This document shows positions 25,583-41,034 of a stretch of 64,000 nucleotides of DNA, one piece after another. Positions within the stretch are counted from its first letter, which is position 1; each line of letters opens with the position of its first letter. Made by a program: the position numbers and the translations under genes. Location: NCBI GenBank assembly GCA_963695545.1, contig OY968796.1:1312001-1376000 (forward strand). Reading direction: 5' to 3'. The notes below the pieces were generated by a model. The model did no database searches. It worked only from the letters and a program-made list of their open reading frames with translations, and had not been told where the DNA came from. This DNA is from Terriglobia bacterium (GTDB lineage: Bacteria > Acidobacteriota > Terriglobia > Acidiferrales > UBA7541).

Positions 25583-25786
25583 TCACTTGAGGGTCGTACA
25601 ATTCGGAAAATCACCCAAAGGTTCTGATTTTGGGAGAAGTGCGCAAATTTGCCCTGTTTTAGTATCCAGCGCCGTGAGGTTTGCCGCATTGTAAATCACA
25701 AATCGCTGTGCTCCTGACGTTCGTAATGACAGCCAAAGAGCTATGCAGGCGATTGTCAAAGCCACCCAAGATACAATTCTTTGCAT
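25583..25786 (-). CDS. Small membrane/secreted hypothetical protein (IS passenger)
   Basis: 67 aa; hydrophobic N-terminus, LDTKTGQIC...NC; ends just inside left IR. Confidence 0.5.
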   Translation of the reverse strand: MQRIVSWVALTIACIALWLSLRTSGAQRFVIYNAANLTALDTKTGQICALLPKSEPLGDFPNCTTLK

Positions 25787-25830
25787 TGTTTCCCCCTGCG
25801 GATGATCGTCGTTTGTGGCATAATCCTATC

Positions 25831-26094
25831 ATGCATGGCCGTTCAAGCAAGAGAGATACAGCGCAAAACGCGCTCCGAATTGTTGAGGAAGCCACTGGCG
25901 GTCCCCTGAAAGAGGAACGAAAGCCGATACTGTTTCCAGTGAAGCCAAAAAAGAAAAATCCTGCCGCTGTCGCACTGGGTAAACTTGGCGGGATAAAAGG
26001 CGGGAAAGCACGGGCCGCTAAACTGTCTCCTGAGCGAAGAAAAGCAATAGCCCAACGTGCCGCGCAAGCACGCTGGGCTAAAGGTGAGAGTTAA
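25831..26094 (+). CDS. Small basic KGG-motif protein typical of IS1/IS1595-like elements
   Basis: RDTAQNALRIVEEATG...KNPAAVALGKLGGIKGGKARAAKLSPERRKAIAQRAAQARW; extended -10 TGGCATAAT ends 6 nt before ATG. Confidence 0.8.
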   Translation: MHGRSSKRDTAQNALRIVEEATGGPLKEERKPILFPVKPKKKNPAAVALGKLGGIKGGKARAAKLSPERRKAIAQRAAQARWAKGES

Positions 26095-26123
26095 TCGGTA
26101 AATCGGTGTTGTTGTTCCACCAC

Positions 26124-26176
26124 GCCCCAAGTCATTTCGTCCGGCCAAAGGCTAGATGACTTGGGGCTTCGTGTTT
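26124..26176. terminator. Stem-loop between convergent passenger genes
   Basis: 12-bp inverted repeat GCCCCAAGTCAT...ATGACTTGGGGC followed by T-rich tract. Confidence 0.5.
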
Positions 26177-26274
26177 TCGCTCCTCGGCACGGTGGGTGCG
26201 TGGCCGTGAGCTATCGGTATTATTTTTCGCATCTTTGACCTCGCGTTCGAACGCCCGTTCTGCCAGCGAGCGTT

Positions 26275-27096
26275 TTACTTAGCAGAATTTTTCTCAACGA
26301 CAACCTTAAGCGATCCTCGGCTGTCGTCGGAATCTTTGTAAATCACATTGAAGATCGTAGACGCCATTTCCAGCCACTTCTTGCGATCTTCGGTTGTCCA
26401 TTCCGCTTGTGGTTCGGGTAGCTCCTTGAGTAGTCCCTCGATCAAAGGATGCCGTTTTGTCTCCGGCTGTTCGTGCTTTCGTTTTGGCTCTTTTGGCTCC
26501 TCTTCCTCCTCGTCCCGTTCCTCCAAAACCTCTGTCCTGCTGCTGGCCTTGATACTCGGAGCCACAAGGCGAGAATTGCCAAACTCAAAGAACCCGGCTT
26601 GTTTTGCGGACCTCTGAAATACTTGACGTGCTTTTTCTTTTACCTTTGGACCAACTCCCAAAGTGACCATTGCGCCCACTAGTCCAGAAGTCGGTGGCAG
26701 GGTTGCGCCCTTGAATTGCTCATAGAGCGCCTTGTAAAGCGGAACGGTTAGGAATGAATCGACTCGGGCAGCTTTTTCTTGGTCTGGATCACAAATGCGC
26801 GTACCTAGTTGTGTGAGGGTGACGGTTCCGCGATCATAGGTTAGCAATCCGTACATTTTTGCTGTCAGAGCGCGAAGCCTAAATCCACCGCCGTTCGCCG
26901 CTTGCTGGAAATGTCCAGCCAGTTGATCCCATTGGCACGATGAACCGCCGACAGTGTGTACGCCCTTGGCGAACGTCACTGCATCGTCAAGGTCAAGATA
27001 TGGAAAGCCGATTGTGGATCGTTCTCGACTCCCCTCGCTCTCTTGGGCTTCAGCAACCACTTGTGGTTCTTCTTTCAGCGCTTCCTTTGGTGACAT
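26275..27096 (-). CDS. Hypothetical winged-helix-like protein (IS passenger)
   Basis: 273 aa; AGGAGG SD; FPYLDLDDA...AKMYGLL...TLTQLG...FLTVPLY helical/wHTH-like pattern, charged linker, C-terminal HPLIEGLLKELP...W...KWL domain. Confidence 0.75.
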   Translation of the reverse strand: MSPKEALKEEPQVVAEAQESEGSRERSTIGFPYLDLDDAVTFAKGVHTVGGSSCQWDQLAGHFQQAANGGGFRLRALTAKMYGLLTYDRGTVTLTQLGTRICDPDQEKAARVDSFLTVPLYKALYEQFKGATLPPTSGLVGAMVTLGVGPKVKEKARQVFQRSAKQAGFFEFGNSRLVAPSIKASSRTEVLEERDEEEEEPKEPKRKHEQPETKRHPLIEGLLKELPEPQAEWTTEDRKKWLEMASTIFNVIYKDSDDSRGSLKVVVEKNSAK

Positions 27097-27271
27097 ATCA
27101 GAGCCTCCTTTCGGGCTAGTGACACTCTAATGCCTCCATCGGGATAAAGTCAATGCTTGTTTTCCTATTTAGGAAAGTAAAATACCAAGTTTTCCACAGC
27201 CTGTATAATAAAGGATGGATCAGCACTATTTACTTGACAGCTTGCGCGCTCAAGGATACAATGTGCGCATT

Positions 27272-28120
27272 ATGAATCGCTTAACATTAAACAAAAGAGC
27301 GCAAGTGGTGAATGCCTTGGTTGAAGGAAACAGCATCCGGGCAACGGTAAGGCTAACCGGAGTCTGTAAGGATGCCGTTATCAAGCTGATTCGTGACTTC
27401 GGCAAGACCTGTGCGGACCACCACAATCGTGCCGTTCGTAACGTACATTCGCGCCGCGTGCAGTGCGATGAGGCATGGTCGTTCTGCTACGCGAAGGCTA
27501 AGAACGTTCCAGAAGAAAAGCTAGGAACGGGAGCCGGGGACGTGTGGACGTGGACCGCGATTGATGCCGATTCGAAATTGGTCCTGTCATACCTGTGCGG
27601 CGGACGGAGTGCGGAATGGGGTTATAAGTTCATGGAGGATTTAGCATCGCGAGTGTCCAGTCGCATCCAAATCACGACTGACGGTCATCGTGTCTACGCG
27701 GAGGCCGTCGAAGGTGCTTTTGGAATGGACGTGGACTACGCGATGCTCATAAAAGTCTACGGGAACGATGCTGCGCCAGATACGCGCTACAGCCCAGCCG
27801 AGTGTATTGGCATTCGCACCGCTGTCCTTGCGGGACGCCCGGACCCACGGCATATTTCTACGAGCTACGCGGAGAGGTTGAATCTCAATCTGAGAATGGG
27901 TATGCGAAGATTCACGCGCTTGACGAATGCCTTCTCCAAGAAATTCGAGAATCACTGTCACATGGTCGCAATCTATTTCGCGTACTACAATTTCTGCCGC
28001 ATCCACCAGACACTCAGGGTTACGCCAGCGATGGAGGCCGGATTAGCAGACCACGTTTGGAGTCTTGAAGAGTTGGTTGGTCTGTTGGAGGCCGAAGAGA
28101 AGATAGAAAGGGCGGCATGA
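27272..28120 (+). CDS. IS1-family DDE transposase
   Basis: N-terminal HTH (LVEGNSIRATVRLTGV), QCDEAWSF, VWTWTAID, TTDG, ERLNLNLR...RRFTR, YNFCRIH, TPAMEAG; TTGACA-17-TACAAT promoter immediately upstream. Confidence 0.9.
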   Translation: MNRLTLNKRAQVVNALVEGNSIRATVRLTGVCKDAVIKLIRDFGKTCADHHNRAVRNVHSRRVQCDEAWSFCYAKAKNVPEEKLGTGAGDVWTWTAIDADSKLVLSYLCGGRSAEWGYKFMEDLASRVSSRIQITTDGHRVYAEAVEGAFGMDVDYAMLIKVYGNDAAPDTRYSPAECIGIRTAVLAGRPDPRHISTSYAERLNLNLRMGMRRFTRLTNAFSKKFENHCHMVAIYFAYYNFCRIHQTLRVTPAMEAGLADHVWSLEELVGLLEAEEKIERAA

Positions 28121-28121
28121 A

Positions 28122-28367
28122 ATGAAAAACACGGTCGAAGTTGGAATGCTCATACTTGCGGTGATCGGCGCAGTTGGTGGAATATGGAATCGACTAAAGC
28201 TGAACAAAGGGATCGGCATTCGGTTTATTCAGTATCTAGGACTTACAGTGCTTGTCCCGCTTGTTGTGCTTTTGTCGCTAGAGGACAGAATCAGCCAGGA
28301 GATGACTGGAGCCATTGTTGCAACAGCCGTGGGGGCTGTCTTGGCCGGAATCGGAAAAGAAGAATGA
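28122..28367 (+). CDS. Small multi-TM membrane protein (IS passenger)
   Basis: 81 aa with three hydrophobic segments; starts 1 nt after transposase stop; stop touches right IR. Confidence 0.65.
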   Translation: MKNTVEVGMLILAVIGAVGGIWNRLKLNKGIGIRFIQYLGLTVLVPLVVLLSLEDRISQEMTGAIVATAVGAVLAGIGKEE

Positions 28368-28392: not shown

Positions 28393-31023
28393 TCAGCCGC
28401 CCATTGCGTCGCTCTTCTGGTCGGAGGGTGTGCTGACAGGCGGACCGCCCCTGTTGTCACGCGGCCCGAGCGCGGCCACGGCGTCTTCGATTTTCTTCGC
28501 AATCTCGTGCGGCTCGCCTGGTTCCGGGAAATAGATGGGCTTGCCGACGTAAACCTGCACGCGGCCCGGCCGGTTCCATCGCGTGCCGGCCAGGCGAATC
28601 GCATAAAGCCCTTCGACGCGCATCGGCAGCACCGGCAAACGCAGATCATTCACGAGTAAACCGATGCCGGGACGAAATGTCTTCATCGTGCCATCCGGCG
28701 TTTCATCGCCTTCCGGAAAAATCAGGATACTGTAGCCCCGCTCAGCCAGGCTGGCCGCAAATCGAAAGCTATCGCGAAACAGCGCCGATTTCGGCAGCGG
28801 AAAAACGTTGAAGAGCGCGTACATCAGGTAGTACCCGATCTGCCAGAGCCAGCGCCTGAAGAAAAACCACTCCTTCGGCGGATGCCGCTGCTTCACCAGC
28901 CGCTCGCCCCACATCGCGGTGGCCATGCGGTAGCGCAGCCGCGGCGTCAGCGCCGCGAGCACGAAGCCCACGTCGTAGTCCATCTGGTGATTCGCGACGA
29001 TCAGCAGCGGCCCGCGCACGCCGCGCAGATTTTCCCGGCCGTAGACGCGCGGGTGCGCCATCAAGTGCGTGGCGGGCCAGGTCAGCATGCAATAAATCGC
29101 GGCGCGTATCCAGGTGATCGGCCAGCGCTGCGGCCAGCGTGAATAAACGAATTGGGGTTTCTCTCCCGCCGGCTTTGCTTCGCCGATTAATTTCTGTAAG
29201 TCCCCAACCGTGCGCGCTTCGGCAAATTTCGTTTGGTCCAGCTCCACCTGGTAGCGATCTTCGAGCGCGCCGAGTAATTCCACGCGGCCCAGCGAATCAA
29301 GGCCGAGAGCTTTCGCATCCGTGCCGTCAGGTCTCGCGGGTTCTGGCGCCGGAGCCGCGGTCGCGGTGCGCGCCCGGCCGACGATCTCACTCAAAATCGC
29401 TTCGGTCGCCTGACCGCTCACCCGTTGCTGCTTGCCGCTGATCGCGGCTTCGGCGGCACGGCGAATGGTGGCCGCCTGCGGCTTGCCAGTTCCGGTGCGC
29501 GGGAAATCGTTGTCGGGCCAAACCCACCATCGGCGGATGTGCTGAAATTCCGCGAGAGTCGCGTTGGCGCGTTCGACGACGGCCGCGGCATCCGCGGAAG
29601 AAGCACGCAGCAAGAGCACGGCAAACGGTTCGGCGTTTCCGCCATCTTCGAGGCCGAAGACCAGGCAATCCACCACTTCCGGCTGATGGCGCAGCGCGGC
29701 CTCCAGATCTGCGGGATAAACGTTCATTCCCGCCGGCGTAACGATCACGTCCTTGCTTCGCCCGCGAAAATACAGGCTGCCCTCGGCGTCCATCGAACCC
29801 AAATCCCCGGTGTGGTACCAACCCTCGTCGCCATCTGCCAGTGGATGCAGACCGGTCGCGTCCCAATATCCGGCAGCCACACTTTTCCCACGCACCAAAA
29901 TCTCGCCCTTCTCGTCCAATTTCACTTCGCGCCCATCCAAGATTTTCCCGATCGAGCCGCGCCCGATCTTGAACGGATGATTCACGCTCACAAGCGAAGT
30001 GGTCTCCGTCAATCCGTAGCCTTGAATCACGGCAAAGCCCAGGCGGTTCCAGAACTCCTCGGTTTCGGCGGGCAGCGCGGCTCCGCCCGAAAGAAACGCC
30101 CAGAATTTCCAGCCGAATCGCCGGTGAATTTTTCGGAATCGCCACATGTGCCAGATGAAGCGCTCCTTCGCTGCTTCGGCGTATTCGTGGCGGAATTTTT
30201 CGATCTGGCCGCCGGCCTCGATGTCGCGCTCGATCTTCGTCGCCAGACTTTCGATCACCCGCGGCACGGCGATCAGCAGGCTCACGCGCTCGTCATGGAT
30301 CGTGCGCAGGATTTCGGCCGGATTCAGCGAATCTCCGAAAACCACCGTGGCGCTGATCGACGAAGGAACGAACACGCCCATGAACTGGCCGAACACATGA
30401 CTCAGGGGCACGACGTTGAGGAATCGCAGCGGGTGGAAATAGCGCTCGTACTTCTTGTATTTCAGGATTTGGATTTCCAGCGGTTCGAGGTTCGCCAGAA
30501 TATTGCCGTGAGAGATCGCCACGCCCTTCGGCTCCGACGTCGTGCCGGAGGTAAACAAGATCTCCGCGATGGCCTCGCGATTGAGAGGCGGCGCGGGATA
30601 CGCCTGGCCCGAATGCCGCGCGAGGAGCGTCGTTAGATTTTCAAGCTCCAGGACATGCATCGCCGCGCTCGGCGGCAGAGACCGCTCATTCGAGATCACC
30701 GCAAGTCGCGCCTGCACCTGGCTTGCGACACGCGCGGCGAAATCCGGCGCGGCTGAAAAATCCATCGGCACCGCGACGGCGCCGCGCAGCAGGCATCCGG
30801 TGAACGCCGCCACCCATTCCGCCGAGTTCGGGCCCCAGAGGAAAACTCGGTCGCCCGCGCCGATGCCGCGCTCTTCGAGCTCCCGCGCAAATCGCGCCGC
30901 AGTCTCCCCAAGCTGCGCGTAGGTCCACCGGACGCGCCGGTATCCCTGTCGCTGGACGTATGCGATTTCGTTGCCGCGAGCGGCAAAACCGCCCACAAAT
31001 TCCGCAAGTGATTGGCGAGTCAT
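28393..31023 (-). CDS. Fusion: long-chain acyl-CoA-synthetase-like adenylation domain - ACP - PlsC-type acyltransferase
   Basis: FTSGTTSEPKG, QGYGLTET, TGDLG (adenylation); LGLDSLGRVELL (phosphopantetheine Ser); NHQMDYD (HxxxxD) and FPEG (acyltransferase). Confidence 0.88.
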   Translation of the reverse strand: MTRQSLAEFVGGFAARGNEIAYVQRQGYRRVRWTYAQLGETAARFARELEERGIGAGDRVFLWGPNSAEWVAAFTGCLLRGAVAVPMDFSAAPDFAARVASQVQARLAVISNERSLPPSAAMHVLELENLTTLLARHSGQAYPAPPLNREAIAEILFTSGTTSEPKGVAISHGNILANLEPLEIQILKYKKYERYFHPLRFLNVVPLSHVFGQFMGVFVPSSISATVVFGDSLNPAEILRTIHDERVSLLIAVPRVIESLATKIERDIEAGGQIEKFRHEYAEAAKERFIWHMWRFRKIHRRFGWKFWAFLSGGAALPAETEEFWNRLGFAVIQGYGLTETTSLVSVNHPFKIGRGSIGKILDGREVKLDEKGEILVRGKSVAAGYWDATGLHPLADGDEGWYHTGDLGSMDAEGSLYFRGRSKDVIVTPAGMNVYPADLEAALRHQPEVVDCLVFGLEDGGNAEPFAVLLLRASSADAAAVVERANATLAEFQHIRRWWVWPDNDFPRTGTGKPQAATIRRAAEAAISGKQQRVSGQATEAILSEIVGRARTATAAPAPEPARPDGTDAKALGLDSLGRVELLGALEDRYQVELDQTKFAEARTVGDLQKLIGEAKPAGEKPQFVYSRWPQRWPITWIRAAIYCMLTWPATHLMAHPRVYGRENLRGVRGPLLIVANHQMDYDVGFVLAALTPRLRYRMATAMWGERLVKQRHPPKEWFFFRRWLWQIGYYLMYALFNVFPLPKSALFRDSFRFAASLAERGYSILIFPEGDETPDGTMKTFRPGIGLLVNDLRLPVLPMRVEGLYAIRLAGTRWNRPGRVQVYVGKPIYFPEPGEPHEIAKKIEDAVAALGPRDNRGGPPVSTPSDQKSDAMGG

Positions 31024-31257: not shown

Positions 31258-31487
31258 TACTCGTCGTTTATTTCTCTTGTGTATATTTTACCCGTTCACC
31301 GCGTTGCACGCCCAAAGGGTAGTGCTCGATATCAGCAAGTACCCTAAGGGCTTACAGACCGGGAACGCTGCGAGCCTCTAGTTGAATGGAAGCGATTCCG
31401 GCGGACAGCCGGGCGCGCTTCTCCCAAGATAAGCCTTGCCGCTCTTTCGGTGCCATCCAGGCAGGCGCCGCCACCAAGGAGGTAGTT

Positions 31488-31715
31488 GTGCAGGTTCTAA
31501 TTACAGGACAGTGCATCAAGCACGAAATCTACGGCCTCGGCGTCATTACTGACTCCGATTCCGAACGCACCACCATCGACTTCGACGCGCACGGCACCAA
31601 GAAGTTCGTCACCACGCTGATGACCGCTGAGCTGGTCGGCGATGCGCCCACCAAGCCCGTGCGGCCCAAGCGCCGCTCTCGCCGCGCAGTTGCCGCGGTC
31701 GCCGCGAAAAGCTAA
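31488..31715 (+). CDS. Small stand-alone Tudor-like protein resembling the UvrD/PcrA C-terminal domain, with basic tail
   Basis: AAGGAGG SD then GTG; GQCIKHEIYGLGVI...TIDFDAHGTKKF pattern; tail KPVRPKRRSRR. Confidence 0.65.
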   Translation: MQVLITGQCIKHEIYGLGVITDSDSERTTIDFDAHGTKKFVTTLMTAELVGDAPTKPVRPKRRSRRAVAAVAAKS

Positions 31716-31797: not shown

Positions 31798-34734
31798 TCA
31801 TTTCGCGGGCGCTCCAGCGCTCTTCGCGGGAGTTGGCGGCGTGGCGGGGGGAGCGGCGGACTTCGCAGGCGCTGCTGCGGCTTTCTGCATCTGTTCGAGC
31901 GTCTGCGCGACGCTGTCCATTCCCGGCGCCACCATGTTCATTGAGCGGAATTGTTTGAAATCGCCTAGCGCGGTTTGAGCGAGCGTCTCGCCGGTGTCGC
32001 CGATTTGACGGTTGGGCTTGTCGAAGTAAATGTTCTCCGCGAGTTGCAACTGGTTTGTGAACAAATACGCGTGCGCCAAATTCACTTCCATCCAATCCTG
32101 CGTCGAATCCATTTTGAGCGAGGTCTGCGCGTCAGCCAGCGCTTGCGCATATTGCTTGGTCAAAAGCTCCGACCAGGCCAGATTCCCGTAGGTCTCCGCT
32201 TCTTGCGCTTTCAATTTGGTCGTCGCAGCGTCGCCGGTTGCTTTCCCAAGATCTGTCTCCAGAACTTTTAGCTCGTCGAGATAGGTCTGGCGCGCGCCTG
32301 TGTAATCGGCGCCCTTCCCGTCCTGCTCGCTGGCCAGCGTCTCGTACGCCAACCAGAGGTTGTCGTCATACTGCGGATCGTCAGCTGCTTTTAGGGCGGC
32401 GGCCAGCGCTTGCCGATCGTACTGCAAGGCCTTCTGCGGTTGATTTTCGTCGTCGGCAAGGCCGGCGATGTGACGCTCCACGATCGCAAGGTGGTCTTCG
32501 GATTTGGGATTGTCATGCGCGTGGATCAGGTCTTGCGCGGCCTGCTCGCAATGCAGAAAGGCGTCGGTCGCTTTTGCGTAGTTCTTTTCGCCTTCGTACA
32601 CCAGGGCGATCTCATCGTACGCTGCCCACGGATCGTCGTCGTACTGCGCATCGCTCGCCGCACTCTGTGCGGCCGCGAGTTCGGCCTGAAAATCCTGCAT
32701 GGCTTGCGGCAGATGATTCTCGCCGTCGTCGAGAATGCCGATTTGCTGCTCCACCGTCGCAAGATGGTCCTCGGATTTTGCGTTGTCGTGCGCTTTGATC
32801 AGGTTTTGGGCCGCCTGCAGGCACTGCTGAAACGCTTTGGTCGCATTCGCGGTGTCGTTTTGATCCTGGTACAACAGCGCGATCTCATCGTACGCCGTCC
32901 ACGGATCGTCGTCGTCCTGCGCATCGCCAGCCGCAGCCTTTTGGGCGGCCACAAGTTCGGCCTGAAAGTCCTGCATGGCTTGCTGCGGCTGATTCATGTC
33001 GTTCGCGATGACGCCCATATTCAAGTCCGCGGTCGCAAGATCGTCCTCCGATACGGCGTTGTCGTGCAGTTGGATCAGTGCTTTCGCCGCCTGCTGCGTT
33101 TGGAGGAAGGCGGCGGCCGCGTTCGCATCGTCCTTTCGGTTCTCGTACAACACACCGAGCTCGTCGTTGAGTATCCACAGGAGCACGTCCACTCGATTGC
33201 TCTTCGCGTCTTGCGCTCTGGCTGCCTGCGCGAATTTCAAGCCCGCTTGATAGTTGGTGAGCGCGGTTCCCTCCGCCTTCCCGTCCTTCTTAGCTTGCAG
33301 AGAGGCTGCGTAGCCACTCATCATGTGGCTCAAAGCCTGCGCCACATTCACCTGCTCGGCGTTTCCGAGTTCGCCGGCCATGTGCTCAAAGAAAACGTTG
33401 TTTTGATTCCAGAATGGTCCGAGCTTTGCCGTCATGTCCGAGTCGCTGCTGGTTTGCTGGTAGAGCTCGATGTCGGAATCGAGCACTTGATTTACCGCCG
33501 TCGTCGCGATGTTCTTCGCGCGGCGCGCTTCGTGCACGGCATAAATCGTCAGGCCCAGCAGGACCAGGCACGCCGGCGCGGCCACGCGCGCCACGCGGAT
33601 CACGCCGCTCCGATAAGCGGCCTTCTGGCGCGCCACTTCGTCGAGCGGCAGGTTCGCGCGCACCCATTCGCGATCGAACACGCGGAAATAAATACGATTG
33701 CGAACGAACAAAAAGCCTTCGCGAACGCGGATGATTCCCGAAAGCCGCAGGATGGAGATCAGTGGGTGCGCGGGATCGTCGCGCAAGCGATCGTGCCTGC
33801 GAACGCGATCGTAGAGCATCAGCAGCGCGGTGTGGTCGCTCTCGCTGCGCAGGATGCGGTCGCGCACGAACAGCAGGTTGTCGTCGCGCTCGCGCGCTCG
33901 CGCGGAAAGGAACAGATCCTCGCAGATGCGGTCCACGCCGGCGACGCTGTCGACCTCCGGATCGTCCGCGACCGCCAGGCACAGTCGCTGCGTCATGTAC
34001 GGATGTCCGCCGGTCCAGTACAAAATCCGCTGCAGCAGCAGCCGCCCGATTTTTTCCGGCCGCCCGAGCCCGGGCAGAAGCGTTTCCGCTTCAGCCTCGG
34101 TGAAATCAGCCAGGTCGATGCGCACGCCCACGTTGAACGGCGTGGTGCGGGCGTCCTGAATCAAGTCCGAAGGAGTGGCCACGCCAATCAGACAGAAAGT
34201 CAGTCGCTGAAGTTCCGGATCTTCCGCGCGGCGATTGTAGAGTTCGCGAATCGACGCAAAAAACTCGTCGGTTACAAATGGCACGCTGCGCGTGGCGTCG
34301 ATTTCGTCGACGAATATAACGACTCGCTCGCGCACCCTCTCGAGCACGACCTCCCGCAGCGCGCGCGTCCAGCGCTCAAGAGGAGAAAGCTCCGCGTGCG
34401 CGGCCCAGAATTCCTCCACTTCCTTTTTCAGCCCAAATTGCTGCGCCGCCCGCGACGCGAGGCCTCGGTACCACTGCTCCGGCGTCAGATTCTGGCCCAG
34501 CGCGGTCAGATCGAGCACCGCCACGCGCGTATCGCCTTGCGCGCGCAATGCCACTGCCGCGCGCACCATCAGCGACGATTTGCCCATCTGGCGCGACGTC
34601 AGAACGTAGCAGAATTGGCCCGCGCGCAGCGCCGTCAGCAACTCTTCATCCGCCTGCCGGCGCACGTAGCTCGCGGCGTCGCGCCCGAGTGTACCTCCCA
34701 CGACAAAGAATTCGCTTCCAGTCGTTTCGGTCAC
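31798..34734 (-). CDS. AAA_35-type STAND-like ATPase - single TM helix - TPR-like repeats
   Basis: FFVVGGTL...SYVRRQAD, Walker A SRQMGKSS, Walker [45 protein letters not shown]; tandem 91-92-aa helical repeats. Confidence 0.85.
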
Positions 34735-34801
34735 AGGACCCTCCTTTCAAGCCGCTGTCTCACGGTTTTCCCGGAGCCACTTGGCAGATTTGCGTCCGGC
34801 G

Positions 34802-36853
34802 CTAAGTCAAATGACGCAGTAGGAATTTCCGGTACAGCTCGCAGCGCGGCGTCACTTCATTCGACGACGCGCCCGTCATCACGCCCGCGCTCCGCAGGCG
34901 CACAAAGTCGTCCATGGAGATGGATGCCTTGGCCCCCGCCGCTCCGATCACCTGGCGGACCGCTACGGTCAACGCGGGATTTTTCGCCAGGGTGACCAGG
35001 ATCCTGCGCAGATGGTCGCCGAACGGCCCTTCGTCCTGGTCCGCTATGCTCTCGAACGCCTCAAGCGACCCGCCGTTTGCCGCTGCGCCTGAGCCCGCGG
35101 CCAGCGCCGTCAACTCCTGCAAACCGCGCCGCACAAGATAAGGACTGCCGCCGACGAGCGCGAAAAACCGTTGGATCTCCGCGGGGGATTTGAGCGGCAT
35201 CCCGTAGCGCCGATTGAGTTCGGCCACTTCCTCGATTCCGAAATCGCGCAACTCGATTTTGGTGCCGACGTTGAATGGCGATTGGTTGATGTCCTTGATG
35301 AACAGATAAGCTTCCGTCGCGTAGACAATCACCATGCTGAGCCGCGTCCACGGACCATCGGGATTGAGCATGCGATCGTTGTGCCACGAGCGGAAAAGCC
35401 CGAAGACTTCGCTGGCGAATTCGCTCGTGAACAAGCGGTCCACTTCGTCCATGCCCCACACCAGCGAATGAGGAACGCCCTCGAGAACAGTTTCGATAAA
35501 CGCCGCGAAATTGTCGTTCGCGGAATCACCGGCGCGCCATGTCTCATCGAGCGATATTTTCAGTCCCAGCCGCTTGATCATCTGCTTCATCAGCGCGCGG
35601 TAGAACTTATCGATGCTCGAAAGATCGTCGGTGTTGAGCGTCTGAAAATCCGTGGTCACCACGGTGGCGCCGGCCGCGCGCGCTTGTTGCAGCCCGCGCG
35701 CCAGAAGCGAAGTCTTTCCCATTTGCCGCGCGCCCTTCACCAACACCACGCATGTTCGCCGGTCGACGGCTTTGCGAAATTCCGCATCCGTGGGCCGCTC
35801 GATGTAATACTCGGAATCGAGCGGCACCGCTCCCCCGGCTGGCTCCGGTTCTTTGAGCACCGGCGCGGGTCCCCGCAGCGACGCCGCAAGTTCGGTCGCC
35901 ACACGCGCGTTGTCTTGCGCGTCCCTCCACGCAAACTGCGGCGCCGCGTTCAGAATGCCGCCCAGAGGTTCCGCGAGCGCCTCTCCATAAGCTAGGCGCA
36001 CGGGCAGCAAACGCGGCTTCCCTTTCTGCTGGTCGGCCGCGCCGTGCGCCGTTTCCACTTCCCATTCCATCATCTCGCTTGACGCCGACGCCGCTGAAAT
36101 CAACGGAATCACGGCGTCGGAGGCGCGTATCTGCTTCTCGATCTCCAGCAGCCATTCGGTGCCCTTTTGTGTGTGCCGATCGACAAATACCTGATGGCCC
36201 TGAGCGTTCAATTGATCCTCGAGCCACTGCGTCAGTGTTTCGTCCGGCTGGGCGTTTCTCTTATACAAAATCGCCAAGTGCAGTCCGCTCGGAGCAACCG
36301 CCGCGCCCGCGGCGCTCGGAGTAGTCGTAGCGCTCGGCACGCCTGGGGTGTTCGCGGTGACTTCGCTCACGCGAGCCGCACCCGGCAAGATTTCGATATC
36401 CGGCGCCAGGCCGCCCGCACGCAGGCCTGCAATGATTCGCGGCAACGCCGCCGCTGCCCCTCCGGCCCCGATCGAGACCGCGCTCGCCGCGGCCATGATC
36501 TGTCCCCATTCACGAATCTGGTCGGAGGTGCGTTGGCGCGCCTCGAATTCGTCGTGCGTCATTTGATAAAGAACGGGGATTTTTTTCTTGCGCGATTTGT
36601 AGGCACGCACCGCTTCGGCCGTGATTTCATCGGGGCCGTCGCAGGAGTGCGGCGAGATCAGCAGCAAAAACGCGTCGCAGCGCTCGATTGCCTTGCTGAT
36701 CTCCACCAAATAGGAACCGCCCGAAGGACAATCGCGCTGGTAGTACCACGTGCTGTAGCCCGCGGCTTCAAGACCGCGGGCCAATTCCTGCGCGACGCTC
36801 CCGTCCTCTTCGACGTAGCTGACGAAAACTTTCCGCTCGACAGGCAATTCCAT
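34802..36853 (-). CDS. TIR - TIR - AAA_35-type STAND-like ATPase
   Basis: TIR1 VFVSY...AIERCDAFLLLISP...EITAE; TIR2 VFVD...IRASDAVIPLIS...EWEVE; GGAVPLDSEYYIER, Walker A GARQMGKTS, Walker B WGMDEVD, SPFNVG, VGGSPY, RCELYR; start MELPVERK at 36853. Confidence 0.88.
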   Translation of the reverse strand: MELPVERKVFVSYVEEDGSVAQELARGLEAAGYSTWYYQRDCPSGGSYLVEISKAIERCDAFLLLISPHSCDGPDEITAEAVRAYKSRKKKIPVLYQMTHDEFEARQRTSDQIREWGQIMAAASAVSIGAGGAAAALPRIIAGLRAGGLAPDIEILPGAARVSEVTANTPGVPSATTTPSAAGAAVAPSGLHLAILYKRNAQPDETLTQWLEDQLNAQGHQVFVDRHTQKGTEWLLEIEKQIRASDAVIPLISAASASSEMMEWEVETAHGAADQQKGKPRLLPVRLAYGEALAEPLGGILNAAPQFAWRDAQDNARVATELAASLRGPAPVLKEPEPAGGAVPLDSEYYIERPTDAEFRKAVDRRTCVVLVKGARQMGKTSLLARGLQQARAAGATVVTTDFQTLNTDDLSSIDKFYRALMKQMIKRLGLKISLDETWRAGDSANDNFAAFIETVLEGVPHSLVWGMDEVDRLFTSEFASEVFGLFRSWHNDRMLNPDGPWTRLSMVIVYATEAYLFIKDINQSPFNVGTKIELRDFGIEEVAELNRRYGMPLKSPAEIQRFFALVGGSPYLVRRGLQELTALAAGSGAAANGGSLEAFESIADQDEGPFGDHLRRILVTLAKNPALTVAVRQVIGAAGAKASISMDDFVRLRSAGVMTGASSNEVTPRCELYRKFLLRHLT

Positions 36854-36963: not shown

Positions 36964-37512
36964 CTATTTCGCGGGCGCGGGTTGCGCGGTGGGCGGCAGG
37001 ATGCCGTTTAATCGCAAATAGCCCGCCTGCGTGCTGTAGTGATCGGCCCAATCGTTGGTGATCGAAATCATCGCGCCTGCGATGGTATTCGGGCGATTGC
37101 CGAACAACATAATCGGCTGGCCGAGCTTGGAATCATCCACGGCCGCAAGCGCCGTCGTGCAGTAATCGAACGAAGCTTTTAAGCCCGCCACCAGTTGGTC
37201 CTTCGGGTCCGTGTCGGCCAGCTTCAAATCGGGCGCCGGAGTGCCGGAGATTTTCGAGCAAAGAAACGTGTTGGACGTCGCGATGTGCGCCGTCAGGTGG
37301 GCGAACGTCATCTGTTGCGGCGTCGGAGAGTAATTGAATTTGTCGGCGGGCATGGAGTCGGCCGCTGCGACCATGATTTTGCTGTAGCGCGCGAGTTGCT
37401 GCTTGATGTTCGTGCTCACCGGATTGGCTACCGGCTGGTTATTTTCATCCTGCGCGCGGCCCGCCGCGGGAACCAGCAGCAGAGCCAGCGCGATCCATGC
37501 CAGGCGTTTCAT
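36964..37512 (-). CDS. Secreted DinB-family protein
   Basis: AGGAGG SD; signal peptide; AADSMPADKFNYSP...TFAHLTAH...DHYSTQAGYLRLNGILPP. Confidence 0.85.
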   Translation of the reverse strand: MKRLAWIALALLLVPAAGRAQDENNQPVANPVSTNIKQQLARYSKIMVAAADSMPADKFNYSPTPQQMTFAHLTAHIATSNTFLCSKISGTPAPDLKLADTDPKDQLVAGLKASFDYCTTALAAVDDSKLGQPIMLFGNRPNTIAGAMISITNDWADHYSTQAGYLRLNGILPPTAQPAPAK

Positions 37513-38097: not shown

Positions 38098-41034
38098 TTG
38101 GGTGTCGGAATCTCTGTGGCCACGTCGACCACAAAACTCGATCCGCGCGCCGTCCAAGAACAATTGCTCGACGTCGTGCGCGGCTTGCTCGGCGAGCTGG
38201 GCAATTCGCGCGCGGAGCAAACCGCCAACATCGGATCGCATCTCGAGCGCGACCTCGGTCTCGGCAGCCTCGAGCGCGTTGAACTGCTCGTGCGCCTCGA
38301 ACGCGCGCTGGCTGTGCGCCTGCCAGATAGCGTGATGGCGCAGGCGGAGACGCTCTCTGACGTCGCCGCAGCTCTCGTTTCCGCCGACTTCGCCGCGGCT
38401 CTCGGCACCCACCGCGCGGCGCCCGTCTTCACATCAACTCCAGCGCCAACAGGCTCGACGATCGCCGCGGACACCTCGGCATTTGAAACCCTGCAACAAG
38501 TCCTCGCGCACCGCGGGCGCGCCGACTCGGCGCGCGCGCATCTAGTTTTTTGGAGCGACACCTCCGTCGAATCTTCAGGCGCGCCCAGCACAACGCTTAC
38601 GTTCGGCGACCTCTACGAAGGCGCGCACCGTTTCGCAGTGGAACTCGCGCATCGCGGAGTCTCCCCGGGCGATGTCGTTTCGCTGATGCTTCCGACGTCT
38701 CCCGAATTTTTCTTCGCCTTTGCCGGTACTCTTCTTGCCGGTGCCGTCCCCGCGCCGATTTATCCACCCATTCGCGCCGACCGCATCGAAGAATACGCCG
38801 AGCGCCAAGCCGCGATTCTCTCGAACGCTCAGGCCAAGCTCCTCGTTACTTTCCGCGAAGCCGCAGGCGTGGCTCGTCTGCTTCGCCCGCGCGTTCCTTC
38901 CCTTGATGGCGTAGTCACCGCCGCTCGTCTTCTCGCAGAGCGCCACTCCGATCTGCCTCTGCCAGGTCTCGGTCACGGCGACGACGTGGCGCTGCTGCAA
39001 TACACTTCGGGCTCGACGGGCGATCCCAAAGGCGTGACGCTTAGCCACAGCAATCTTCTCGCGAACATCCGCGCCGCCGGCGAAGCTCTCAACGTTCGCC
39101 CAGACGACGTCGGCGTCAGTTGGCTCCCGCTATATCACGATATGGGTTTGATCGGCGCGTGGCTCGGACCGATGTGCTTCGGCATACCGCTGATCGTAAT
39201 GTCGCCGCTCGAATTTCTCACGCGGCCTGAGCGCTGGCTCTGGGCCATCCATCGCCATCGCGGCACGCTGAGCGCCGCGCCGAATTTCGCCTACGAGTTA
39301 TGCCTGCGCAAAACGCACGAGCGCGATCTCGAAGGATTGGACTTGAGTTCGTGGCGCGCCGCGCTCAACGGCGCCGAACCCGTGCTGCCCGAAACGCTCG
39401 ATCGTTTTGCCGAACGTTTCGCGCGATACGGTTTCCGCCGCGAAGCACTGACGCCGGTCTACGGTTTGGCGGAAGCCTCGCTCGCCGTCACATTCCCGCC
39501 GCCGGGGCGCGGACCGCGTGTGGACCGCGTCGATCGCGCAAGTCTCGCGGAAAATGGCCGCGCAGTTCCCGCCGCATCGCCTGCCGCTGAAGGCGGCGTT
39601 GAAGATGATTGCGCGAGTGTTTCGTTCGTATCCGTCGGAAAGCCGATTTTGGATTGCGAAGTCCGCATCGTTGCGGAAGGTGACGGTGGGCGCGCCGGGG
39701 AACCGGGCCGCGAAGCCGAAGAGCGGTGCGAAGGACAACTCTGGTTCCGCGGCGCTTCGTCCACGCGCGGTTACTACCGAAATCCCGAGGCCACCGCGCG
39801 CCTATTTCCGCTTGGGCCCGCTGCCGGCTGGATTAATTCTGGCGATCGCGCCTATCGCGTGGATGGCGAGTACTACATCACGGGCCGCACCAAAGACATC
39901 ATCGTGAAGGCCGGCCGGAATCTCTATCCGCACGAAATCGAAGACGCCGTCGCGCGCGTCGCCGGCGTGAGGCGCGGATGCGTTGTGGCCTTCGGCACAG
40001 CCGACGCGTCGAGCGGCACCGAACGCCTGGCGGTCGTTGCGGAAACGCGCGAGCGATCGGTCGAGGCGCGAGAAAAACTTGCCGCGGCCATCACCGCGGA
40101 GGTCGCACGCTCCGTCGGCGTGCCACCGGATGCCGTGCTGACCGTGCCGCCGCACAGCATTCCGAAAACTTCGAGCGGAAAATTGCGCCGCGATCGCACC
40201 AAACAACTCTACCAAGCCGGAGCGTGCGGCGCGCCGACGCGCCCGCCGTGGCTGCAGGTAACGCGCCTCGCTCTCAAGGGTCTCGCGCGCTCCGTCTGGC
40301 GTGTCGCGCGGATTGTGCCCGAAAAACTTTACGGCGTGTATGCCGACTTAGTGCTCACCGTGCTCATGGTTCCCGCATGGGCGATCGTACTTCCTGTGCG
40401 CAACCGCAAGTTCGTGGCGCGCGTGGCCGTCGGCGGCCTGCGCGCTTGCTTCCTGCTCATGGGCAGCCCGATCCGCGTTTCCGGGCGCGAGCATCTCACC
40501 GCTCACGGCGCGTGCGTCCTGGTGAGCAATCACGCAAGCTACATGGACGTGCTTGTGCTCATGGCCGGCCTCGGCACGGACTTCCACATCGTCTCCAAGG
40601 GCGAAGTCCGCAAAATGCCCGTCATCGGAACGTTCCTTCACAAGCTCGGCCACTTCTGGTTCGACCGCGCCGATCCCCAAGCGCGCCTGCGCCAGGCCGA
40701 GCAGATCGAACAATCTCTGCGCCACGGCGAATCCGTCTACGTCTTCCCCGAAGGAACGTTCACGCCACAAGTGGGCGTCCGGCCGTTTCAATTGGGCGCG
40801 TTTCAAGCGGCTGCACGCGCAGGTCGCCCTATCGTGCCCATCGCGCTTCGCGGCACGCGCCACTTTTTGCGCGACGACACTTATTTGCCGCGCCCCTCGC
40901 GCCTCGAGATTCACGTTGGCCCGCCCATCGAACCCCGCCCCACCGAAGCGAATCTCTCCTGGCAGGAAATCGTTCGCCTGCGCGACGTCTCCCGCGACTG
41001 GATCGCCCGCGAAGCTGAGGAGCCTGTGCTTTAA
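38098..41034 (+). CDS. Fusion: ACP - fatty acyl-AMP ligase (FAAL-like) - PlsC-type acyltransferase
   Basis: DLGLGSLERVELL (ACP); QYTSGSTGDPKG, VSWLPLYHDMGLIG, APNFAYELC, NGAEP, YGLAEA, PKTSSGK (FAAL-type); NHASYMD, FPEGT; exact start uncertain. Confidence 0.88.
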   Translation: MGVGISVATSTTKLDPRAVQEQLLDVVRGLLGELGNSRAEQTANIGSHLERDLGLGSLERVELLVRLERALAVRLPDSVMAQAETLSDVAAALVSADFAAALGTHRAAPVFTSTPAPTGSTIAADTSAFETLQQVLAHRGRADSARAHLVFWSDTSVESSGAPSTTLTFGDLYEGAHRFAVELAHRGVSPGDVVSLMLPTSPEFFFAFAGTLLAGAVPAPIYPPIRADRIEEYAERQAAILSNAQAKLLVTFREAAGVARLLRPRVPSLDGVVTAARLLAERHSDLPLPGLGHGDDVALLQYTSGSTGDPKGVTLSHSNLLANIRAAGEALNVRPDDVGVSWLPLYHDMGLIGAWLGPMCFGIPLIVMSPLEFLTRPERWLWAIHRHRGTLSAAPNFAYELCLRKTHERDLEGLDLSSWRAALNGAEPVLPETLDRFAERFARYGFRREALTPVYGLAEASLAVTFPPPGRGPRVDRVDRASLAENGRAVPAASPAAEGGVEDDCASVSFVSVGKPILDCEVRIVAEGDGGRAGEPGREAEERCEGQLWFRGASSTRGYYRNPEATARLFPLGPAAGWINSGDRAYRVDGEYYITGRTKDIIVKAGRNLYPHEIEDAVARVAGVRRGCVVAFGTADASSGTERLAVVAETRERSVEAREKLAAAITAEVARSVGVPPDAVLTVPPHSIPKTSSGKLRRDRTKQLYQAGACGAPTRPPWLQVTRLALKGLARSVWRVARIVPEKLYGVYADLVLTVLMVPAWAIVLPVRNRKFVARVAVGGLRACFLLMGSPIRVSGREHLTAHGACVLVSNHASYMDVLVLMAGLGTDFHIVSKGEVRKMPVIGTFLHKLGHFWFDRADPQARLRQAEQIEQSLRHGESVYVFPEGTFTPQVGVRPFQLGAFQAAARAGRPIVPIALRGTRHFLRDDTYLPRPSRLEIHVGPPIEPRPTEANLSWQEIVRLRDVSRDWIAREAEEPVL

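Follow-up and report, generated by a model that had tools for sequence, protein, structure and literature searches.

A tandem pair of genes for paralogous STAND ATPases, one with two TIR domains, as a candidate split transmembrane receptor in a soil Acidobacterium

Closest described STAND and TIR systems

In STAND NTPases, a P-loop domain that carries the Walker A and B motifs precedes a helical domain with a GxP motif, and a winged-helix-like domain comes last. In NAIP-NLRC4 and in the paired and helper NLRs of plants, a sensor STAND and an effector STAND share the labour, and sensing is intracellular, with no transmembrane step. The bacterial STAND immune receptors in the literature that we compared work as single chains, with sensing inside the cell. 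Among them, Avs and bNACHT are described as tripartite chains with a STAND ATPase, a TPR or WD40 sensor and TIR effectors (PMC13581612; 10.1101/2022.07.19.500537). Those Avs families that have been tested react to phage proteins when these are expressed inside the cell, and their sensors are mostly TPR-like; the STAND tree in the same source has 589 clades (PMC13581612). The Npun2340/2341 family of the MNS clade is fused to effector and FGS domains and is described as single tripartite proteins and not as a pair of an effector-ATPase and an ATPase-TM-sensor protein (PMC8195603). In Thoeris, the TIR product is bound by SLOG in type I, and type VII consists of TIR and SLATT (10.64898/2025.12.03.692087).

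The two genes studied here, A and B, are from a soil Acidobacterium and lie in the window, i.e., the whole stretch of 64,000 nucleotides that was analysed. They share the STAND ATPase, the type of sensor and the TIR effectors with Avs and bNACHT, but effector and sensor are on separate genes and on two paralogous ATPases, and in B a membrane helix precedes the sensor. As in sensor/helper NLR pairs, a sensor STAND and an effector STAND are genetically linked; however, A and B appear to belong to a different STAND clade and include a predicted transmembrane step. The likeness to Thoeris types I and VII lies in a sister TIR-TIR branch, eight loci of which have an adjacent candidate signal-responsive effector gene whose product is SLOG-like at its N-terminus and has two SLATT-like 2TM units, whereas the window locus has no such gene and its TIRs share a chain with a STAND ATPase that would be under a membrane receptor. 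The term "ATPase" does not occur in the main text of the Thoeris preprint (10.64898/2025.12.03.692087). Searches of PADLOC and NCBIfam gave only TIR- or Walker A-local matches for A and nothing relevant for B, with no full-length match. Sequence searches of solved structures with the full-length proteins produced only weak TIR matches for A (best E 0.023) and a single weak WDR19 match for B. A literature search found no description or experimental study of the pair, although Leipe et al. 2004 may mention tandem genes, and the view in the initial annotation that this architecture had no known characterisation held.

Architecture of the two genes

Gene A (34802..36853, minus strand) encodes a putative cytoplasmic transducer of 683 aa, with its ATG at 36853. 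The protein comprises TIR1 (residues ~8-145), a low-complexity linker, TIR2 (~192-330) and an A-type AAA_35 STAND ATPase (337-683). In Pfam scans, two stretches of A matched TIR_2 (E 3.6e-37) and residues 341-678 matched AAA_35 (E 9e-77); the Walker motifs are RQMGKTS at 376 and DEVD at 469. The C-terminus coincides with the end of the ATPase module, without a sensor or TM helix, so that the scan and motifs confirmed the initial description of two tandem TIRs and an ATPase lacking a sensor. TIR1 (36404..36853, minus strand) occupies an N-terminal slot whose content varies and is a kinase or cyclase in most relatives, and its Glu80 was invariant in the aligned TIR-TIR proteins (8/8). TIR2 (35846..36295, minus strand) is the ATPase-proximal TIR, which is present in 64 of 80 A homologues, 63 of these 64 retaining Glu265. 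Based on the TIR consensus, we take Glu80 and Glu265 to be the catalytic position, and in this respect the TIRs of A resemble those of Thoeris.

Gene B (31798..34734, minus strand) encodes a predicted membrane receptor of 978 aa starting from a GTG, in which a B-type AAA_35 STAND ATPase (1-375) is followed by a basic helix, a TM helix, a TPR solenoid and a Pro/Ala tail. The Pfam scan matched AAA_35 at 15-250 (E 1.8e-28), and the Walker motifs are RQMGKSS at 48 and DEID at 143. The single predicted TM helix (aa 382-400; 33535..33591, minus strand) is a hydrophobic 19-mer with a Kyte-Doolittle value of 1.86 (next best 1.26), and an acidic repeat region follows it. Its hydrophobicity is at the weak end compared with the median of 2.33 in homologues. 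A helix with a value of at least 1.6 was present at the same place in 59/60 B proteins, 56/60 were more basic before the helix than after it, and no second such helix was found downstream in any of the 60. Among the best 150 representatives, the helix was missing in 8 of the 134 with a single module. PEGA or CarboxypepD_reg domains form the C-terminus of B in 15/59 homologues, PEGA being counted among peptidoglycan-associating domains (PMC7159879), and a caspase-like domain follows the helix in one homologue. By the positive-inside rule the helix would be N-in/C-out, and together the helix and charges favour a topology with the sensor outside and the ATPase inside; with the PEGA/CarboxypepD_reg termini, they speak for the extracytoplasmic TPR region proposed at the outset.

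The predicted extracytoplasmic TPR sensor (aa 405-951; 31882..33522, minus strand) has three repeat units of 91-92 aa with 44-58% mutual identity, and relatives have one, two or three units. Its TPR Pfam matches were under the curated cut-offs. The AF2 model of residues 405-951 was an all-helical solenoid (pLDDT 90.8), to which Foldseek matched many TPR proteins, e.g., OGT, SPINDLY, LGN/Pins and consensus TPR. The earlier outline of gene 2 as an ATPase, one TM helix and acidic TPR-like repeats was therefore upheld by the 19-mer and the TPR-like model.

Both ATPases have the Walker motifs and GGxP of STANDs. The scores to Pfam AAA_35 (PF14516) were 258.5 bits for A and 99.8 bits for B against a curated cut-off of 27, and neither protein had a NACHT or NB-ARC Pfam match at E<=0.1. 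The model of the B ATPase (pLDDT 91.6) had whole-length fold matches that included SSO1545, PAB2304, resistosomes and CED-4. The closest were the archaeal PAB2304 (2qen) and SSO1545 (2fna), which also came top in Foldseek; the two best matches had Z 20.3 (rmsd 4.3, 311 aligned) and Z 19.9 (rmsd 4.4, 309 aligned), with the next at 16.6, at only 15-17% identity to the B ATPase. Resistosome and NLRC4 chains were matched at Z 12-17. Searching solved structures with the ATPase profiles returned nothing, or a Walker A-local match to KaiC. On this model, the ATPase fold appears closest to archaeal MNS-type STANDs, not to NACHT/NB-ARC. AAA_35 may correspond to the family that Leipe et al. 2004 called Npun2340/2341. 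Since the ATPase appears MNS-type rather than NACHT/NB-ARC, the likeness to NAIP-NLRC4 is one of analogy.

Linkage, neighbourhood and divergence of the pair

Both genes are on the minus strand and are separated by 67 bp (34735-34801). Their ATPases share 32% identity over 244 aa (E 1e-22) and are the only AAA_35 matches in the genome, in agreement with the initial report of adjacent, co-oriented genes that each carry an AAA_35 ATPase with intact Walker motifs. A frameshifted single gene was rejected, as contigs from runs X1, X4 and X6 spanned the junction with 0 differences, indicating that the stop and gap are real; X1 may be the source sample, and X6 belongs to another study. Scans for promoters and terminators gave about as many matches as chance would (1 vs 1.0; 10 vs 7.9).

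The tandem arrangement, which had been said to occur in other genomes, was common. Of 79 genome loci, 57 had B directly downstream of A, 6 had it at another place in the locus, 9 lacked it and 7 ended too soon; the corresponding numbers for 79 metagenome loci, a partly overlapping set, were 67, 1, 2 and 9. Thus B immediately followed A in 57/72 and 67/70 informative loci, respectively, and A was without B in 11/142. In an even sample of 300 genomes of the phylum, AAA_35 occurred in 10, with B directly downstream of 12/15 A-type genes, and the adjacency was seen in several phyla despite the 32% identity. The identities of A and B partners were correlated (r 0.84, 55 pairs, beside a quick tree without bootstrap), but this is expected from shared ancestry alone and was not taken as proof of co-evolution.

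A hetero-interaction, part of the initial proposal, was also predicted. The modelled 1:1 complex of the A and B ATPases scored 0.75 compared with 0.00 for the best of three controls. The score mark, roughly valid with the alignments used, was reached by 116/157 solved complexes and 2/215 mismatched pairs. At least 95% of contacts agreed between model runs, and the partners had pLDDT of at least 84. The modelled interface takes in the Walker A (48-49, 53-54) and Walker B (143-144) residues of B. On the A side, its conservation did not exceed that of the remainder of A (0.74 vs 0.74), and only the pocket faces had raised values (0.84 and 0.81 vs 0.73-0.74). The pass may stem from a resemblance to AAA+ oligomers of known structure, e.g., ORC. 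The initial reading of a sensor/helper pair was partly supported: linkage, the predicted hetero-interface and the favoured topology were compatible with it and none of its computable checks refuted it, though the ATPases had no NACHT/NB-ARC match.

A DinB_2-family gene (36964..37512, minus strand), with a signal-peptide-like N-terminus by eye, lies 110 bp upstream of A in the same orientation. It is within the same 6 kb presence/absence block as the pair and is not a general partner of the family. The pair's other neighbours are acyl-AMP ligase/acyltransferase genes. Family-wide, we surveyed 127 nearest neighbours, taken as the nearest ORF on each side under a crude ORF filter, cut to 450 aa and without a background set. 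PADLOC matches at 1e-15 were found in 7 and were specific in 4; most neighbours were metabolic, transport or envelope genes, with outer-membrane barrels in 8/127. One family locus was among viral contigs. Neighbours were seldom defence genes (7/127).

The SLOG-like/SLATT gene of the sister branch lies right after B in its eight loci; it is not beside the pair in the window genome or its closest relatives. In the Atlas, its N-terminus matched YspA/SLOG clusters at 0.85-0.88 and the whole protein matched SLATT_1/SLATT_3/DUF4231-bearing clusters at 0.95-0.97. No SLOG match was found in Pfam SLOG, PADLOC or PDB, and we treat the putative SLOG identity as a lead only. A SLOG-like/2x2TM relative adjoins a patatin-type phospholipase gene 1.4 Mb from the window pair. 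Full-length relatives of this kind were found in three genomes with the pair (G000, G003, G004) and in two in which the pair was not found (G015, G016); none was found in G026, an unpublished genome, though the pair is present there. A link in trans was therefore unsupported beyond close kin.

The pair was found in 4/61 related genomes (G026 included) and was absent at the same site in 3/5 genomes of the genus. Sensor identity was 53-62%, compared with 82-94% in the TIRs and ATPases. The TIR glutamates are retained under dN/dS of 0.05-0.13. The sensor had dN/dS of 0.18-0.38, with repeat number changing between relatives; values below 1 fit relaxed constraint as much as an arms race. Based on both retained TIR glutamates, the fast sensor with its repeat changes and the sister-branch gene, the TIR-TIR branch leans immune.

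Proposed mechanism and competing readings

We propose, at a probability of roughly 0.5, that A and B form one receptor split across two paralogous STAND ATPases that turns a ligand outside into a TIR NADase response. Architecture, linkage, motifs, the helix with its charge bias, fold, the modelled interface and fast sensor evolution were computed, and from them we infer the topology, ligand, oligomer, NADase activity and purpose. B would be an inner-membrane protein whose TPR solenoid faces outwards and whose ATPase faces the cytoplasm, and cytoplasmic A would dock head to tail through the ATPases, with the back face of A on the nucleotide-binding face of B. The ligand, on the envelope side and most probably a protein that is foreign or damage-associated, would cluster or re-orient B, and a nucleotide-dependent A/B oligomer would gather the TIR domains of A. 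Once gathered, these may cleave NAD+ and so either make an ADP-ribose-type signal or drain the NAD+ pool in response to threat or stress. That the pair is a split transmembrane receptor is probable; given such a receptor, we somewhat favour an immune or cell-death output for the TIR-TIR branch.

The same split receptor could instead serve ordinary signalling from the environment or envelope, in the manner of a two-component system built of STANDs, with the TIRs as regulated messengers or scaffolds and not as a death switch. We regard this as the less likely output, while recognising that the slot of A holds a Ser/Thr kinase in 48 of the 80 homologues, a cyclase and TIR without kinase in 9 and a winged-helix or BTAD head in 8, that few neighbours are defence genes and most serve metabolism, transport or the envelope, and that one locus is on a viral contig. 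Here, however, both slots are TIRs with the catalytic-position glutamate, the sister branch is coupled to the SLOG-like/SLATT membrane gene, and the sensor diverges fast in a patchily distributed pair. B might also be a guard or inhibitor that holds A inactive until damage, proteolysis or phage action frees A to self-oligomerise and fire its TIRs. A has no sensor of its own for auto-inhibition, some A genes lack B, and the tight 1:1 model would suit sequestration as much as activation. This nevertheless seems unlikely to us: the Walker A and B motifs are invariant in B proteins, and 16 of the best 150 representatives have two or three such ATPases per chain (15 B-type tandems and one B-A), which suggests an active, oligomerising role for B; moreover, the lone A genes show that A on its own is not necessarily toxic.

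Should the helix not cross the membrane, the pair would be a cytoplasmic, Avs-like split of sensor and effector that detects phage proteins inside the cell, as Avs do with their mostly TPR-like sensors (PMC13581612). The modest hydrophobicity of the window helix and the one caspase-like domain after it agree with such a location, which we consider quite improbable against the helix in 59/60, the charge bias in 56/60 and the PEGA/CarboxypepD_reg domains after the helix in 15/59. Hardly credible is that A and B are tandem paralogues that work separately and are linked by shared history only. Gene order is shared by kin, 11 informative loci lack B and the partner correlation is expected from ancestry, but the two ATPases are adjacent in several phyla at only 32% identity, their parts are complementary and a complex was modelled.

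Across the family, A heads include kinases, cyclases and DNA-binding domains, and B sensors are TPR, WD40 or PEGA domains, which points to a general transmembrane signalling module. The whole A/B family is not a TIR-only immune system. It is conceivable, if doubtful, that it represents a widespread kind of receptor on the bacterial surface, with two paralogous STAND ATPases in place of the kinase and regulator of two-component systems and with a Toll-like, SLOG-SLATT-read TIR-TIR branch. There, a diversifying TPR ectodomain would read an outside ligand, the signal would cross via the A/B oligomer, and the TIRs would make a nucleotide signal for a SLOG-SLATT membrane effector, which would act in cis in the sister branch and might act in trans in the window genome. 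If true, a heteromeric, envelope-reading STAND pair would be a distinct transmembrane route in soil bacteria to TIR, kinase, cyclase and DNA-binding outputs, and A/B would be a simple two-gene model of sensor/helper NLR cooperation. The TIR-TIR branch lends itself best to experiment, since its activity could be read out directly as NAD+ turnover, cADPR-type products and SLATT-dependent toxicity. Representatives matching the B ATPase at E<=1e-30, clustered at 50% and with A- and B-types pooled, numbered 4,496.

Gene structure and modelled interaction of A and B

Analyses of the two genes bore out the layout proposed in the initial annotation. Gene A (36853-34802, minus strand; 683 aa) encodes tandem TIR domains, detected as two TIR_2 stretches, and AAA_35 at residues 341-678. 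Gene B (34734-31798, minus strand; 978 aa) encodes AAA_35 at 15-250, the single annotated membrane segment as one hydrophobic helix (382-400), and an acidic repeat region. The 67-bp gap, intact Walker A and Walker B motifs in both proteins, and the relatedness of their ATPases (32% identity) were also confirmed. Contigs of three public runs, one of which may be the source sample, spanned the A/B junction with 0 differences. The nearest named relatives are Candidatus Acidiferrales MAGs (93% and 89%).

Modelled by AF2 (pLDDT 91.6), B 1-375 best matched the archaeal ATPases PAB2304 (Z 20.3) and SSO1545 (Z 19.9), with rmsd 4.3-4.4 over ~310 aligned residues, and next plant resistosomes, ORC/Cdc6 and CED-4. 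Judged by this model, the B ATPase is a STAND module closest to MNS-type proteins. The region after the helix, annotated as TPR-like, was modelled as an all-helical solenoid (pLDDT 90.8; 15-sequence alignment) that matched TPR proteins.

Co-modelling of the ATPase modules predicted the proposed hetero-interaction, with a score of 0.75 vs 0.00 for the best of three controls. The pass mark is reached by 116/157 solved complexes and 2/215 mismatched pairs, rates that are only roughly valid given our own alignments, and the score covers the A-B heteromer only. At least 95% of contacts agreed between runs, partner pLDDT was at least 84, and B's Walker A/B face was contacted by A's post-Walker B helix and NQSPFNVG loop. 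Such head-to-tail packing is the usual AAA+ arrangement, and this likeness may by itself yield the model's pass. Interface conservation was 0.84 vs 0.73 for the rest on the B side, and 0.74 vs 0.74, i.e., without excess, on the A side.

Linkage, distribution and sensor divergence

Co-occurrence of A and B was found in genome, metagenome and evenly drawn phylum samples. A genome scan with A's ATPase, in which the best 80 of 292 confirmed stretches were kept, gave 79 loci, chiefly from Acidobacteriota with some from Armatimonadota and Verrucomicrobiota. B directly followed A in 57/79; in 4 it lay at another place on A's strand, in 2 it was upstream in divergent orientation, and in 9 it was absent. 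Contigs ended too early to judge in 7. The 79 metagenome loci kept of 205 confirmed, which partly overlap the genome set, had B adjacent in 67, convergent in 1 and absent in 2, with 9 too short. Among 300 genomes drawn evenly across the phylum (AAA_35 cut-off E<=1e-15; up to six candidates scored per genome), AAA_35 occurred in 10. Fifteen A-type genes, typed by match span, were found there: 12 had B directly downstream, one had B 5.4 kb upstream, and two had none among the matches listed (at most six candidates per genome).

Among 61 relatives, four, including the window's genome and one unpublished (G026), carry the pair, always as both genes. In a same-genus genome without it (G001), ~110 bp separates the flanks of the B-A-DinB block (6 kb), and two others, G002 and G005 (92% and 66% complete), lack the block at the same site. 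One edge of the block is marked by a small conserved ORF (31386-31715) weakly like a UvrD C-terminal domain (E 0.006). Within a low-GC patch (~52%) at 25681-28367 lie a 273 aa ORF without annotation (26275-27096) and a gene for an IS1-like transposase (27215-28120). The single locus found in viral contigs, L172, is an IMG/VR contig with a TIR-A and B pair, its viral origin being taken from the database listing.

Comparison with three close relatives gave 82-94% identity for the TIRs and ATPases (dN/dS 0.03-0.13) and 53-62% for the sensor (dN/dS 0.18-0.38); for flanking genes, compared in two relatives, identity was 77-95%. The window's sensor has three 91-92 aa units, and B lengths of ~978, 875 or 800 aa in relatives correspond to three, two or one. 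Only 13 proteins among 7,999 candidates scored matched the sensor. This divergence pattern would be expected of a ligand-diversifying receptor, but dN/dS values <1 do not point to positive selection on the sensor.

Predicted membrane topology and probable function

The annotation placed the sensor outside the cytoplasm. The helix (KD at least 1.6) was present in 59/60 B proteins, the pre-helix side was more basic in 56/60, and no second such helix lay downstream in any of the 60; as a hydropathy-based estimate, this favours an inside ATPase and an outside sensor. For B's ATPase, 4,496 representatives matched at E<=1e-30. Sixteen of the top 150, of which 15 are B-type tandems and one is B-A, had two or three ATPase modules per chain; the helix was present in 126 of the remaining 134. 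These multi-AAA_35 chains (P0004-P0009, P0015, P0022, P0026, P0031-P0034, P0061, P0066, P0110) include several with many TM helices.

The A/B pair is a real, conserved two-gene predicted STAND receptor. Its architecture, linkage, motifs, fold and modelled interface were computed; we infer the topology, ligand, oligomer, activity and purpose. Most likely (probability about 0.5), it is a split transmembrane receptor with clustered NAD+-cleaving TIRs and an immune or death-type output. B would be a single-pass membrane receptor and A its cytoplasmic partner; binding of an outside ligand would yield an A/B ATPase oligomer, clustering the TIRs for NAD+ cleavage. The annotated split sensor/helper pair agrees with the architecture, linkage and modelled interface; by Pfam the ATPase modules are neither NACHT nor NB-ARC, and by fold the B ATPase model is nearest MNS-type proteins.

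The plain defence reading is counted against by several observations. PADLOC and NCBIfam gave no full-length system match for A or B. The 127 nearest neighbours included 7 PADLOC matches, 4 apparently specific (no background set), the majority being metabolic, transport or envelope genes, and the window's block sits between two acyl-AMP ligase/acyltransferase genes. That the same machine serves ordinary signalling is a real, if rather unlikely, alternative. It is improbable that B is a guard, and still more so that the sensor is cytoplasmic, given the helix and charge data. Independent paralogy of A and B seems very improbable. The flanking AMP-binding/carrier/acyltransferase genes (28393-31023 and 38098-41034) are paralogues on opposite strands.

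Membrane-crossing STANDs have a predicted precedent in one NACHT protein, for which PMC10907252 predicts a periplasmic lectin domain. The pair is not described in the accessible parts of that paper, PMC7159879, 10.1101/2022.07.19.500537, 10.64898/2026.10.19.760177 or PMC13581612. A literature search, with most subscription journals outside its reach, found no publication on the pair. Npun2340/2341 (Leipe 2004), which we take to be a possible family name for AAA_35 proteins, suggests two neighbouring genes, so the tandem arrangement may already have been noted computationally there.

Modularity and the TIR-TIR branch

The 80 A proteins (best of 292) comprised kinase+TIR 41, cyclase+TIR 9, TIR-TIR 7, TIR only 7, kinase only 7, winged-helix or BTAD 8 and no hit 1. 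B C-termini (n=59) were TPR/Sel1 (19), WD40 (19), PEGA/CarboxypepD_reg (15), caspase-like (1) or without hit (5). In a Pyrinomonadaceae-rich kinase-TIR subfamily, a conserved third gene of 540-590 aa without Pfam hit follows B (L010, L012 with a shorter ORF, L014, L017, L022, L027, L068, L078, L079, L080), and in 5 loci the next gene is PBP-like (170-184 aa). Genes for large outer-membrane barrels (OMP_b-brl_4 + CarboxypepD_reg) flank L018, L021, L024, L032, L036, L037, L040 and L073, which are kinase-TIR loci with mostly PEGA-type B; the barrels may be partners or merely frequent in such genomes.

The ATPase-proximal TIR was present in 64 of these 80 A proteins, with Glu265 kept in 63/64, and TIR1 Glu80 was kept in 8/8 TIR-TIR proteins; from the general TIR consensus, we assume both positions to be catalytic. 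A quick tree placed all eight TIR-TIR proteins together (SH-aLRT 98), in a group of 10 rows whose other two are a kinase-TIR row and a truncated one. In one half of the group, B is followed by a third gene with a SLOG-like N-terminus and two TM-helix pairs weakly matching SLATT_3/DUF4231. It occurred in 4/79 genome loci, all TIR-TIR, and 4/79 metagenome loci (three TIR-TIR, one cut upstream). These eight loci are kin, so a single event may account for them.

According to 10.64898/2025.12.03.692087, the TIR product is bound by SLOG in type I Thoeris and the type VII effector is SLATT, which PMC7159879 describes as a predicted nucleotide-responsive pore. The sister-half loci resemble Thoeris in that their adjacent gene has SLOG-like and SLATT-like parts, the kinds that read the TIR signal there; in the half with the window's pair, this gene is missing in cis. 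The three-gene loci, TIR-TIR-ATPase / ATPase-TM-TPR / SLOG-like-2xSLATT (L025:10075-11829, L020, L053, L054, L098, L102, L154, L163), are the family's best target for experiment.

A 30%-identical relative of the third gene lies elsewhere in the window's genome (G000:C1:2778590-2780092), and its presence followed that of the pair among close kin only. In that stretch (L091:7501-10093; G000:C1:2777500-2780092, minus), no TIR or cyclase was found among the ORFs listed. The gene, SLOG-like with two 2TM units, comes after two related genes whose N-termini are hydrophobic and is followed by a patatin-type phospholipase gene (PADLOC 'Effector, Phospholipase', E 1.6e-44).
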